Below, one piece after another: positions 1 through 6,000 of a DNA stretch of 9,522 bases. The position numbers were made by a program. This stretch comes from a virus (taxonomy: Duplodnaviria; Heunggongvirae; Uroviricota; Caudoviricetes). How positions within the stretch are numbered: the stretch's first letter is position 1; every line of letters starts with the position of its first letter. The stretch lies in IMG/VR virus record IMGVR_UViG_2531839661_000002, positions 1 through 9,522 of that record, one strand, 5' to 3'.

Positions 1-3000
1 AGAAGAATCCGAAAAATGTGCTGTTTGCCGTGGTGTGGATGCAGGGGGAATTTGATTTTGGCGGTACGCCGGCAAATCACGCAGCACAGTTTGGTGCGCT
101 GGTTGATAAATTCCGTGCAGACCTGGCGGATATGGCAGGTCAGTGCGTCGGTGGCTCTGCTGACGGTGTTCCCTGGATATGCGGGGACACGACGTATTTC
201 TGGAAGCAGAAGAACGAATCCACGTACCAGACGGTGTACGGCAGCTACAAAAACAAAACGGAAAAGAATATCCATTTCGTACCGTTCATGACGGATGAGA
301 ACGGGGTGAATGTGCCGACGAACAAACCGGAAGAAGACCCGGACATTCCGGGTATCGGGTATTACGGTTCGAAATGGCGTGACAGCTCAGCCACCTGGAC
401 GTCACAGGACAGGGCGAGCCATTTCAGCACCTGGGCACGCCGGGGGATTATTTCCGACCGTCTGGCAACGGCGATTCTGATTCATGCAGGACGAACCACA
501 GTAAAAGTCGATGCTCCATCTTCTGAAACTGGCGCACCGACGCCATCACCGTCAGAAAATGAAGCGGTAAGCACAACAACACTGCTGTCTTACCGTGCCA
601 GTGAGTCTGAAGGGAGGCTGACCGAACAGGGCTGGAGTGCTGGAGGAGGTAAAGCGGAAATTGTTGCCGATGAAGGTGCAACAGGTGGTACCGCGATGAA
701 GCTGAGCAAGGAGACAGGAGTGGGGTCATGGTATCTGGAGCATGATGCCGGTACTGGCGCTGAACTACTAAAAAATGGCGGTTTAATCAGCTTCCGCTTT
801 AAGGCATCCGGTGAACTGGTAGCAAATCAGTATGTCATTGCACTTTACTGGCCGGTTTCCTCTCTGCCGCAGGGTGTCACCCTGACAGGGGATGCAGGGA
901 ATAATCTGCTGGCAGCGTTCTACATCCAGACAGATGCAAAAGACCTGAATGTGATGTACCACAATGCGAAAGTGGCGACAAACAACCTGAAGCTGGGAAG
1001 CTTTGGCGCATTTGATAACGAATGGCATACGCTGGCCTTCCGCTTTGCCGGGAATAACAGCCTTCAGGTGACGCCGGTTCTTGATGGTCAGGATGGCACA
1101 CCGTTCACGCTGACGCAGTCACCGGTCAGTGCCTTTGCGGCGGATAAACTGCATGTGACAGACATTACCAAAGGTGCGACTTACCCGGTACTGATAGACA
1201 GCATTACGGTGGAAGTGAATAACGCGGATGCCGCGGCATGATAAAAAAAAGCCGCCAGCAATGAAGGAAAGGGATGAACTGTGTTCACTACATGAATGCT
1301 GGCGGCTGGTAAAACGACCATTATGACACCGAAGTTTGCGACATTTTCTACAAAAATAAGTAAATCATGTCAACTATCACGGTGAGAAACCATGACATTT
1401 CTGAACCAGTTAATGCTGTACTTCTGTACGGTGGTCTGTGTGCTGTATCTCCTTTCGGGCGGATACCGGGCCATGCGTGACTTCTGGCGCAGACAGATTG
1501 ACAAAAGGGCCGCTGAGAAAATCAGCGCCAGTCAGTCAGCCGGAAGCAAACCCGAAGAGCCGCTCATTTAGCGGCAACTTTCTTAATCACATCTTTCGAC
1601 GAGAAAATCCCATGTCAGAAATTACATCCCTGGTCACTGCTGAAGCAGTGAAGGAAGTCCTGCGCTCTGAAGAAGTCCGGAGCGCACTGAAACAGAAACT
1701 TCGCCATAACCTGGAAGCGCGTCTTGATGCAGAAGTGGATGCCATTCTGGATGAACTGCTGGGCGCACCGGCAGCTCCGGAGCCGGAAGGCATCGCGGGT
1801 GAGGGGAGTGCTTCAGATAGCGGTGACCCCACACCTGACAGCGACATGATGATGTAAGCATGCGTCAGGGACCATCGGTGTGTGCCGGTGGTCTTTTTTA
1901 TTGTTGTGAGCTTCCGGATTGCGGGAGACGGGGTATGTACCAGATGGAAAAAATCACAACAGGTGTGTCATACACCACGTCAGCGGTGGGAACGGGCTAC
2001 TGGTTCCTGCAGTTGCTGGACAGGGTTTCCCCGTCTCAGTGGGCGGCAATAGGCGTGCTGGGGAGTCTGCTGTTTGGTCTGCTGACATATCTGACGAACC
2101 TGTATTTCAAAATCAGAGAAGACCGGCGTAAGGCGGCACGGGGAGAGTAGGTGATGAACCATGAAGAAATGAATCAGCGCTTCAGTCGTCTGGAAAATGA
2201 AATTGCTGAACTGAATAAAAAACTGTCGGCGCTGATGCCTTCTGAAGATGCAAACAAACGCCGCGATGAGCAGTTTGCTGCGTTTGACGATTATTGCCGG
2301 AAAGTGATGAGCAGAAATCTCGCAGAGTGTTTCCGTATTCAAAAAAACAGAGAGCGCTCTGCAAATAGTGAGATTCTGGATAATTTTTTAAAGGGGGACG
2401 CATCTCGCCAGTGATTGTTTCATTGCTCATTCTTTTGGTGGCTTTCATGAGGCCATCAAACATGATGTTGAGAGAAGTCCAGGTATCCTCTGTTCCATTC
2501 CCGTAAGCATCGAAATAGACACAAATACGATAACCGGTGAACTCGTTACCGCCGGAGTCGGTATATTCCGTCATGAGGGGAACGATGCCAAAGGTTCCTT
2601 TACAAAAATCGGGCCGTTCTTTCTGAAGGTAGAGCGATAGTTTGTTAAGTACCCATCCGACAGCTCGCTCATTTTGGTTTATTTTCGTATCGCGAAACAA
2701 AAATTCGAAGCGGCCAGATGACGCATGGGTGCAACCAAATACCGGGGCGTATTCATCAACCTTTGGTGTTCCTGAAAACATGCAGTCCGTGCTCTCGAAT
2801 GCAGATGAATTGCTGTTGATCCACTTAACAAAAGAAAAAAGGTCTGAATCGCTTGTCTGTCTGAATATTCAACAAAATCCTCAAGGTGTGTCTCGATCAG
2901 TTCCGGGTGTTTACGAAAGTCATAATATTGACCGGGACGATGTTTATGAGTGGTTGTTTTATCCCATGGTTGTGCTCTGCGTCCCTGTAAACGGAGGTCT

Positions 3001-6000
3001 GCCGCTGGATAGATAAGCATAAGTAATCTCCTGGTGAATGTAATCCACGATCATCCGGGGAAATTAAGAACCCGCCAGTGCCCACCACTGGTGGGTGAAG
3101 GCTTAACATATCCAGGGATTCGGAACCGATAAATCCTGATAAATATCCATGAACACCAAAATCAAATACGGCCTGTCGGCTGCCGTTCTGGCGCTGATTG
3201 CCGCAGGGGCGCCTGCGCCTGATATTCTCGACCAGTTTCTGGATGAAAAAGAAGGTAACCACACCACGGCATACCGTGATGGTGCGGGTATCTGGACCAT
3301 TTTGTCGTGGTGCCACCAGGGTGGATGGCAAACCTGTCGTCCCGGGCATGAAGTTGTCGAAGAAAAAATGCGACCAGGTTAACGCCATTGAGCGTGATAA
3401 GGCGCTGGCATGGGTGGAGAAAAACATCCGGGTGCCACTGACTGAACCCCAGAAAGCGGGGATCGCGTCATTCTGCCCGTATAACATTGGCCCCGGTAAG
3501 TGTTTCCCGTCGACGTTTTATAAACGAATTAATGCAGGCGATCGCAGGGGAGCGTGTGAAGCGATTCGCTGGTGGATTAAGGACGGTGGCAGAGACTGCC
3601 GTATCCGCTCAAATAATTGCTATGGTCAGGTATCCCGTCGTGACCAGGAGAGCGCGCTGGCGTGCTGGGGTATCGACAGATAAGCAGAATATTTTGCTGA
3701 AAAATGACGTTGGCCAACGCGGACGGATAACACGAAATCCTGCGAACTGGCAAAACCTAAGTGAATAAAAGTAAAAACCCCGTTTGTTAGCAGCAGGTGG
3801 GGTTTTGTGTTTCCTGACTCCGGAAAAGTCAAAGGAGAAAGTGTGTTTGATTTTAGCAAACTGATTCGGGAGATTTGAGTGATGGCTGAAAAATTATCTA
3901 CCTGGAAGTTCATTCTTATCTGGCTGGTGTTTGTGATTATGGTCTCCGGTTATTTCATCGGTCAGATACGCTGGTGGTGAAATGAACCGCGTTCTGTGTG
4001 TGGTCATCATTGCCCTGCTGGTGGCCTGTGGTGCGCTTAGTCTGGGGCTGAATCATTACCGTGATAACGCCATCACCTACAAAGCGCAGCGCGATAAAAA
4101 AGCCAGAGAGCTGGAGCTGGCAAACGCAACCATTACTGATATGCAGGTGCGCCAGCGCGATGTTGCTGCGCTCGATGCAAAATACTCAAGGGAATTAGCT
4201 GATGCGAGAGCTGAAAATGAAACTCTGCGTGCTGATGTTGCCGCTGGTCGTAAGCGCCTGCGGATCAACGCCACCTGCCCCGGTACCGTGCGTGAAGCCA
4301 CCGGCACCTCCGGCGTGGATAATGCAACCGGCCCCCGACTGGCAGACACCGCTGAACGGGATTATTTCATCCTCAGAGAACGGTTGATGACAATGCAGAA
4401 GCAGCTGGAAGGGGCACAGGACTATATCCGCACTCAGTGCCTGAACTAAGTTTTGCGGATGCGCCGTATCGTCGCTGTATTCCCTCATTAACAGAGACCG
4501 CAGCCCGACAGGGAGACTCCTCTGCGCGAGTGTGCGGGGATAATCAAAAACGATACACACCGGGGTTTACCGCGTTAACGGAGCGCGGCGTTGTCCCCTC
4601 ATAGTCGCTGGTCCGGTGCGATGGTGGAAGAAACCGGACTACATTACAAATGATAACCATTATCATTTTGCGGGTCCTCCTGGTGGGGTGGGCCTGAACA
4701 CGGGGCGGGCGGCGCGGAAAAAGGCGCATTTTTTGATTTTTATGGCACCATCACCACCAGTGTAAATCATTGATATATATCATAATAAAAATTTTTAGTG
4801 TCGAAGTTGATTGTTTTTTGTTCATCACTGGCGTGTATTTACATAATTTTCAGGGGAAGTTATGGATCGTGAATTAAAAAATCTGCATCTGAATATTTCC
4901 CAACTGGCTGCATTATCCGGTGCTCATCGACAGACTGTCGCGGCTCGGGTAAAAAACATAAGCCCAGCCGGTGGCCATGAGAGCAATCTCAAACTGTACC
5001 GACTGACAGATATCCTTGCCGAGCTGATGAAAGCTCCTCTGCCTGTAGATAACGAGGAAATGGATCCTCATGCGCGTAAAGCATGGTACCAGTCAGAACG
5101 TGACCGACTGAAATTTGAGCAGGAAACCGGTCTGCTCGTGTCAGTCAGTGATGTCAGGCGGTCCTTTTCTGTCGTGGTGAAAGCGATAGTTCAGGTACTG
5201 GAAACCTGGCCTGACCGGCTGGAGAGGGACAGGGGGTGGACCGCATCACAACTGAATGAAGTACAGATTGTGGTTGATGAGATCCGCGACACACTGGAAA
5301 AGGCAGTCATTGACTGTTGTGATGAGGCCGATATGTGAATCAGGTGAACGAGAGCCATAGCCGCGCATCCGATATCTGGCGCGAAGTGGCCTCGCTGTTT
5401 CGCCCACCTGGCCGGTTACCAGTAGCGGAAGCCATCAGGCGTTATATGCGGGTACCACGGGGAGCCAATACTTCCGGTCCGTGGGAGTCATCGCTGACGC
5501 CCTATATGATTGACCCCATTAATACATTATCAGCCCGTGAATATGACGCGGTGGTGTTTGTGGGACCTGCGCGAACCGGGAAAACCGAAGGGCTGATTGA
5601 TGGCTGGATTGTGTACGGCATCATCTGTGATCCGGCGGATATGCTGGTGGTGCAGATGACCGAGACAAAGGCGCGTGAGCATTCCAGAACGCGTCTTTCC
5701 AGGACGTTTCGCCACAGTCCGGAGGTCAGTAAGCGCCTCAGCCCTTCCCGTAATGACAACAACGTCCACGACAAAATGTTTCTTGACGGCTCATTCCTGA
5801 AAATTGGCTGGCCGTCGATCACCGTATTTTCCTCTTCGGATTACCGTCGTGTGGCGCTGACGGATTATGACCGTTTTCCTGAGAACGTCGACGGTGAAGG
5901 GGATGCCTTCACCCTGGCCTCAAAGCGTACCACCACCTTTATGTCCTCGGGGATGACCCTGGTCGAAAGTTCGCCCGGGCGGGATATCACTGACACCAAA

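Follow-up and report, generated by a model that had tools for sequence, protein, structure and literature searches.

Moron genes, a concept reportedly due to Juhala and Hendrix, are represented in lambdoid phages by bor and lom of lambda and gp15 of HK97. They are extra insertions among late genes with their own translation signals and terminator, atypical GC content, variable presence and an expected expression in the prophage. We analysed a 9,522-nucleotide (nt) stretch of a Caudoviricetes genome (IMG/VR record IMGVR_UViG_2531839661_000002, positions 1 to 9,522, hereafter the window), which its open reading frames (ORFs) and the annotations of near-identical relatives identify as the late region of a Shiga toxin (Stx)-type lambdoid prophage. 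Between its holin (S) and endolysin (R) genes lies a candidate moron cassette with a minus-strand gene for a 210-amino acid (aa) protein. The cassette shares these properties with the lambdoid morons, and differs from them in its orientation against the late operon, seen at each of the three phage sites where it occurs, in having no recognised promoter, in encoding a product of no described family and, in this copy, in being a pseudogene.

The closest described occupants of the S-R interval, or slot, are the ydfR/DUF1327 (PF07041) genes (BP-4795 ORF47, Qin ydfR) and the longer phrog_1085 fusions (329 aa in Stx2_95; orf5 of phage 86). A plus-strand ORF of the window shares with them its position, its coupling to the holin stop and a coiled-coil linker; unlike them it lacks the DUF1327 and C-terminal domains, and its last ~24 codons are antisense cassette DNA. 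The slots of phage 86 (orf5/orf6), PhiR5_1 and Stx2_12E129 have the same order as the window, with S followed by a plus-strand slot gene, a small minus-strand gene, a hairpin and R, but their antisense genes (phrog_1853, 104 aa; phrog_2572, 86 aa) are unrelated to the 210-aa protein. Our literature searches on Stx lysis-cassette morons and PhiR phages turned up nothing relevant.

The interval between holin and endolysin

We think it probable that the interval consists of the 5' remnant of a dead slot gene, a 731-bp antisense moron cassette (2342-3072) for a conserved 210-aa protein family, and a conserved 75-bp R-proximal segment with a GC-rich hairpin at its start. The gene would be inactive here, and its intact alleles would encode a conversion factor expressed in the lysogen. 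The features of the interval and its flanks are as follows.

1935-2150, plus strand: S21-type class II holin, from its ORF and an identical protein annotated 'class II holin family protein' in relatives; the left flank, not cargo
2151-2414, plus strand: chimeric remnant ORF of 87 aa, starting at GTG 2151 or ATG 2154 and abutting the holin stop
2342-3072, minus strand: putative antisense moron cassette, DNA unique to this cargo type by blastn against phages with other cargo and by alignment
2362-2347 (stem) and 2347-2341 (T7 tail), minus strand: terminator-like hairpin, 26 nt past the native stop codon of the minus-strand gene
2388-3020, minus strand: gene of the conserved 210-aa protein, 633 bp; pseudogene in the window, with T6 for T7 at 2840-2835 and C5 for C4 at 2397-2393
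3028-3032, minus strand: Shine-Dalgarno AGGAG, read from the sequence, with a 7-nt spacer to the ATG at 3020-3018
3070-3096: GC-rich inverted repeat or hairpin, 11-bp stem and 5-nt loop CCCAC, containing a palindrome at 3081-3095; the right cargo edge
3073-3148: conserved R-proximal intergenic segment, common to slots with different cargo
3149-3683, plus strand: R21/RrrD-like endolysin R of the signal-arrest-release type, frameshifted near 3300; the right flank

The original prediction had placed about 1 kb of cargo here, as a convergent gene pair with a palindromic candidate operator. From the holin stop TAG (2148-2150) to the R start ATG (3149) the interval measures 998 bp. The plus-strand 87-aa ORF coupled to the holin stop and the AGGAG before the minus-strand ATG were found as described, as was the lower GC content, which is 0.42-0.47 over 2200-3000 and 0.53-0.585 in the holin and endolysin flanks.

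The slot does hold accessory cargo. Among relatives it measures ~50, 379-399 (with a ydfR-like gene only), 526-875, 1000 or ~1100-1316 bp. Cargo is variably present or absent among otherwise near-identical lysis cassettes, as at least six alternative antisense genes or none; the short slots (50-399 bp) of 32 sampled loci have no antisense gene, and the 210-aa cassette is absent from most lysis cassettes. Variable presence at the site thus joins a terminator-like hairpin of its own and a distinct base composition as marks of a moron. Most of the 210-aa cassettes, at locus L013 and ~18 other IMG/VR loci, lie in a ~1306-bp slot; the plus-strand ORF of L013 retains a DUF1327 domain, and the window's 1000-bp slot type lacks ~300 bp that include it.

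Elsewhere the post-holin gene is modular, an N-terminal DUF1327 (YdfR) domain being joined by a coiled-coil linker to a C-terminal domain; Stx2_95 has it at 329 aa, phage 86 at 268 aa and PhiR5_1 at 211 aa. BP-4795 ORF47 is DUF1327 alone, and the 213-aa Stx2_12E129 slot gene is linker plus C-terminal domain. Codons 1-63 of the window's plus-strand ORF (2154-2341) correspond to the linker, and the rest run antisense through the inserted cassette. In profile searches residues 2-66 matched phrog_36381, phrog_15975, phrog_1085 (profile positions 117-181 of 296) and phrog_2091, and nothing matched beyond residue 66. Neither the 87-aa ORF nor its 162-aa version in relatives matched PF07041 in the Pfam search, in which neighbouring slot-gene variants scored 6e-45 to 4.7e-46. 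With the N-terminus of the Stx2_12E129 protein the ORF shares 82% identity over 57 aa, and with residues 179-207 of the Stx2_95 protein 90% over 29 aa; the DNA homology to these slot genes ends at 2296 and 2341. Because homology stops there, the ORF is taken to lack both flanking domains and to draw its tail from inserted DNA; the cassette would have replaced the 3' part of a resident DUF1327/coiled-coil slot gene. The idea of a convergent pair acting as a unit, such as a toxin-antitoxin or defence pair, did not survive, since the plus-strand ORF is a truncated remnant and neither it nor a homolog accompanies the minus-strand gene in the Salmonella, tail-gene or chromosomal contexts described below.

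The cassette also holds a leader of ~50 nt. Its hairpin (2362-2341) is the sole terminator-like site in 2100-3250 and was recovered in the minimum-free-energy fold. The 3073-3148 segment may hold the antisense promoter. Weak candidates seen by eye are TTATCG-N16-TATGTT in the conserved segment and GATGAT at ~3057-3052. Rfam gave no match over the whole window at E up to 1.

The 210-aa protein family and its broken copy

An uninterrupted 210-codon minus-strand ORF starts at the same ATG in 20 of 23 near-identical related copies. The 1.1-kb block that contains it was found in 132 of 5426 complete Escherichia coli genomes (at least 80% of the query held; best matches listed 99.1-99.6% identical); eight Stx1a/Stx2a prophage records carry it as well. 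The intact protein shares 53-65% identity with five full-length homologs of 210-219 aa. Codon-level comparison gave ratios of nonsynonymous to synonymous substitution (dN/dS) of 0.10-0.29, with 101, 54 and 196 substitutions at the three codon positions, respectively; the family is under purifying selection. A profile search of 1.84 billion cluster representatives (clusters at 50% identity) returned 251 clusters with E no higher than 1e-3, 183 of them no higher than 1e-10, and nearly all measured 200-220 aa. They belong mainly to Nitrospira, Myxococcota and Acidobacteriota, and the gene is chromosomal in these groups (Polyangiaceae within Myxococcota) and in others. Conserved homologs and coding constraint on the minus strand, named by the original prediction as its test, are thus both present, and the gene is real, though inactive in the window.

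Near-invariant positions of the family are R15, P18, P39, I42, L46, E47, D48, F61, N69, E76, D79, R104, R110, N115, G163 and G174, all of which the phage-borne (enterobacterial) clade keeps. An AlphaFold2 model of the 210-aa protein, built on a 103-sequence alignment, had a predicted local distance difference test score (pLDDT) of 95.3 and a predicted template modelling score (pTM) of 0.91. In the model an N-terminal extended arm and two short helices precede a beta-beta-alpha-beta-beta-alpha sandwich. Inspection revealed neither a signal peptide nor a hydrophobic segment. We read the protein, as modelled, as a soluble, single-domain alpha/beta protein whose charged or polar near-invariant constellation (R15, E47, D48, N69, E76, D79, R104, R110 and N115) resembles that of an enzyme or ligand-binding site. 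It is like small alpha/beta sandwich domains (the class III aminotransferase C-terminal domain, Pcc1, PCD/DCoH and TYW3-like) in having a two-layer sandwich in which helices back an antiparallel sheet. Consistent with the earlier failure to recognise a family, Pfam-A, PHROGs and NCBIfam gave no match for the query or any of the 103 family members, PDB searches with two profiles returned only noise (septins, E ~0.4), and the 210-aa protein had no match among solved structures (PDB) or in BFVD. Domain fusions in longer family members were uninformative.

In phages the gene occupies three kinds of site, all antisense to late genes. Besides the S-R interval, it lies between the Q antiterminator and holin genes of a Salmonella P22-like prophage, ~3 kb from a Kiwa system (KwaA/KwaB), and, on viral contigs with 50-56%-identical homologs, between lambda-like tail genes I and J; direct protein matches make the I-J placement firm for ~13 contigs, and for a few others it is looser. 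These three independent antisense insertions into late operons, together with the cassette anatomy and variable presence, identify the element as a moron, the category in which it had originally been placed. A fourth copy, in another Salmonella lineage, stands beside sodC and a tail-gene remnant. Among isolated phage genomes the gene was found in none except eight O145:H28 Stx prophage records, and a related-locus search with the alignment of close homologs gave nothing in species-representative genomes. Across 80 chromosomal loci no partner gene was conserved between phyla; synteny was seen within Nitrospira only, where the neighbours, read by eye with no family search, are presumably thpR, cinA, recA and alaS. 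In the P22-like prophage (L009), which carries the 219-aa homolog, the Kiwa genes lie at 9618-11257 in the same Q-to-holin cargo region. A 38%-identical metagenome member (L050/L051, 448-959) adjoins a gene pair with SocA_Panacea, a PanA-type antitoxin domain.

The minus-strand ORFs that survive in the window encode 113 aa (3020-2679) and 199 aa (2781-2182). Alignment to three relatives showed four single-base indels in the window, namely an extra G at 2393 and losses of A at 2834 and of G at 3035 and 3092. Both homopolymers singled out by the original prediction are affected. The plus strand reads A6 at 2835-2840, within the A-rich tract said to break the frame, where intact relatives have A7, and it reads G5 rather than G4 at 2393-2397 (within the flagged run 2386-2400), which puts the native stop TAA (2390-2388) out of frame. 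The 199-aa ORF extends to 2182 because this extra base bypasses the native stop; the overlap of ~230 bp with the plus-strand ORF is therefore present in the window as reported, but is produced by a window-specific base and is not the native arrangement. The T6 form of the minus-strand T7 tract was found in 3 of 24 sampled copies, namely the window and two other related copies (JNE131328 and L032), and the extra C in the window only. Database records trace the 113-aa T6 product to more than 360 contigs (292 and 68), so the T6 frameshift at 2835-2840 is a genuine allele, common in E. coli. The T7/T6 tract may be prone to slippage and give on/off variation, instead of marking one event of decay.

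The most economical reading of the breaks is decay in a defective prophage, as the comparison with relatives suggests: indels cluster in 2393-3300 (5 of 6 relative to RM10466), R is frameshifted too and the large terminase gene terL is truncated. Alternatively, they could be homopolymer sequencing or assembly errors, with an intact, functional gene in the source, which we regard as unlikely. The four indels in 2393-3092 are all single-base length changes in G or A runs, as such errors would be, and those at 2393, 3035 and 3092 are unique to the window among the 24 copies, so that an assembly error is possible for these three. JNE131328 and L032 have the T6 allele too, and its recorded product makes mis-sequencing of the A-tract improbable; that the gene is broken in this copy, as first noted, is borne out. 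The affected runs are moreover short (2-5 bases), and 5 of the 6 indels fall in 19% of the aligned 4.77 kb (p ~0.001 by our own binomial estimate), unlike random error. The prophage is also defective otherwise, with terL truncated as in 13 complete genomes and R frameshifted.

The inverted repeat and the landing site for antisense genes

The palindrome CCCACCA-C-TGGTGGG, which had been proposed as a candidate operator, is present at 3081-3095. A 7-bp-arm palindrome alone is near chance expectation for ~1 kb (~0.07 per fixed spacer length by our own estimate), and perfect arms are a feature of this cargo type alone, with TGGCGGG in the others. The conserved unit is a different, overlapping repeat at 3070-3096, which folds with -20.1 kcal/mol (z = -5.4); none of 200 shuffled sequences folded as well. 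Viral contigs were scanned for the conserved R-adjacent box and 101 slots were analysed. The core GCCAGTG-N5-CACTGGC (N5 = CCCAC), in 16 sequence variants, adjoined at least six antisense genes unrelated to one another, which were the 210-aa gene and genes of 70-91, 79, 86, 104-118 and 105 aa. All 36 slots with no antisense ORF lacked it. Homology between cargo types begins exactly at the repeat. The repeat is thus linked to the antisense-cargo architecture and is not specific to the 210-aa gene, and the R-proximal side of the interval is a recurrent landing site, or hotspot, for small antisense genes.

Possible roles for the repeat are those of an operator, of a leader hairpin or attenuator, and of a recombination boundary. 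An operator or promoter element controlling the antisense gene is a doubtful choice among these. The repeat accompanies every antisense cargo type and is missing from the 36 slots that have none; it is located 50-76 nt upstream of the ATG and has a core that is nearly invariant across the 16 variants. These properties would suit such an element. No promoter was recognised in 2100-3250, and the perfect 7-bp arms on which the operator was first proposed are confined to this cargo type. Single-sided substitutions, tallied by eye over the 16 variants, would form ~4-5 wobble pairs on the plus strand and ~3 on the minus strand; they favour neither strand and indicate no RNA structure, and with this tally a plus-strand RNA structure, considered on the basis of the wobble changes, was dropped. 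In some cargo types a U-rich tract follows the repeat on the minus strand, an arrangement closer to that of a leader terminator or attenuator. The palindrome as a sequence was correctly noted; its role as operator of the 210-aa gene found no support.

The R-proximal antisense genes (loci L139-L255) comprise at least six unrelated families of 70-210 aa, all of unknown function. Large 'antisense ORFs' (246-481 aa) in the slot scan were rejected as cargo; by sequence, with no family search, they resemble terminase or portal genes of differently organised phages.

Possible roles and the setting of the window

The gene opposes the Q-dependent late transcript and so would need its own promoter, most likely one active in the lysogen. 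The terminator-like hairpin would end the antisense transcript ~190 bp before the holin gene and keep it out of holin, and the 210-aa product would act as a lysogenic-conversion (host-fitness) factor. Several observations weigh against this reading. The window copy cannot make the 210-aa protein at all. A search of both strands of 2100-3250 gave no sigma-70 promoter-like site, which makes transcription from an own promoter putative, and the folding energy of the terminator-like hairpin is unremarkable (z = -0.38). Of the homologs, a single one has a known defence system (Kiwa) nearby. The Nitrospira copies are syntenic beside housekeeping-looking genes, a pattern more to be expected of a physiological enzyme than of a gene in a defence island, and PADLOC (PADLOC-DB v2) was empty for the protein and all 103 family members.

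The suggestion that the cargo serves defence or anti-defence accordingly found no backing among the 103 members. A phage exclusion or defence role, which the accessory-slot location and the single Kiwa neighbour bring to mind, is still the leading guess at a function, if a weakly supported one; the housekeeping-like synteny in Nitrospira and the lack of PADLOC matches favour a physiological enzyme. In a bolder version, which we rate as improbable, the protein would found a new family of single-gene prophage immunity/exclusion factors or conversion enzymes, with an unseen fold, captured from environmental bacteria by enterobacterial temperate phages, including those carrying Stx1a and Stx2a; the hairpin would be a point dedicated to the exchange and control of antisense cargo in S21-type lysis cassettes, and T7 an on/off slippage switch.

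Whatever its function, the element is of an ordinary kind, a moron, with an extraordinary-looking protein family that is mis-annotated in public genomes. The family is conserved, under purifying selection and confidently modelled, has no known relative, and is carried by Shiga-toxin-converting and other enterobacterial prophages. Together with the antisense hotspot it offers cheap targets for defence and lysogenic-conversion screens and for annotation correction. The window copy, a pseudogene in a defective prophage, serves as a pointer to intact alleles elsewhere.

It is very unlikely that the protein is an anti-defence or host-takeover factor acting during infection instead of a conversion gene of the lysogen. 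A small, soluble, family-less phage protein in a variable slot, beside other small antisense genes of unknown function, would fit that description. Anti-defence genes are usually co-transcribed early, whereas this gene is antisense to late operons at three sites, far from early regions, and most of its family resides on chromosomes of non-enteric phyla, with synteny in Nitrospira.

A role in lysis control has slimmer prospects still. The protein, or antisense transcription across S-R, would here tune holin and endolysin and guard against leaky late transcription. The location inside the lysis cassette invites this idea, and the occurrence of at least six unrelated antisense genes at the same R-proximal position behind the same hairpin suggests that orientation and position may outweigh product. 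However, purifying-selected homologs occur in tail operons, beside sodC and in non-phage chromosomes; the gene's presence at non-lysis sites and in non-phage genomes makes lysis control unlikely. Furthermore, the 32 sampled loci with 50-399-bp slots do without an antisense gene, and the terminator-like site precedes S.

In relatives without the extra G the plus-strand frame stays open for 162 codons, and the NCBI Prokaryotic Genome Annotation Pipeline (PGAP) annotates it as WP_001457151.1 (161 aa). The C-terminal ~100 residues of this protein are codon-aligned with the minus-strand gene and end at the reverse complement of the invariant Leu128 codon, and an equivalent ORF lies opposite 53%-identical homologs in unrelated contexts. 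The extension is a shadow ORF, with RefSeq annotating the wrong strand; because the opposite-strand ORF is called instead, the 210-aa gene goes unannotated there. In the sampled cluster the true protein is represented at NCBI mainly by 'partial' fragments. That WP_001457151.1 is the true gene and the minus-strand ORF spurious is hardly credible, since, for all its annotation by PGAP and the LC5678xx submitters, its coupling to the holin stop and the PHROGs matches of its first ~65 residues, it has homologs only for residues 1-66, the remainder being antisense and recurring opposite distant homologs, and the minus frame has dN/dS of 0.1-0.3 and 251 homologous clusters. At L001 the 161-aa 'hypothetical protein' of RefSeq/PGAP and the LC5678xx submitters spans 3055-3540 on the plus strand, equivalent to 2154 to ~2639 of the window.

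The remaining features of the window lie outside the interval.

18-1241: C-terminal part of a NanS-p-like esterase, by the annotation of relatives
Between the esterase and holin genes: DUF1378 and DUF826 genes, by the annotation of relatives
3982-4449: Rz
3' of Rz: DUF1441 small terminase
3' of the small terminase: large terminase terL, truncated, with a premature end at 6342

In the window R is split into ORFs of 77 and 161 aa instead of 177 aa, and differs from that of RM10466 by an extra T at ~3300 and two nearby substitutions. Its intact relative matches the PDB lysozymes 3HDE/3HDF and RrrD 4ZPU. No exact match to the window was found among the complete E. coli genomes, the best being 98.5% identical over 96% of the window.

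Past terL are a tyrosine integrase (6504-7619; Arm-DNA-bind_3 plus Phage_integrase), a small HTH_17/AlpA-like ORF (7735-7959), whose Pfam match is below threshold, and a Bro-N protein (8019-8600). The look of the region 5335-8600 is that of terL interrupted by a P4-like or satellite-type island. In the annotation of RM10466 terL is 'missing C-terminus' and an Icd-like protein lies nearby; the same arrangement (5335-8600) is found in 13 complete E. coli genomes.

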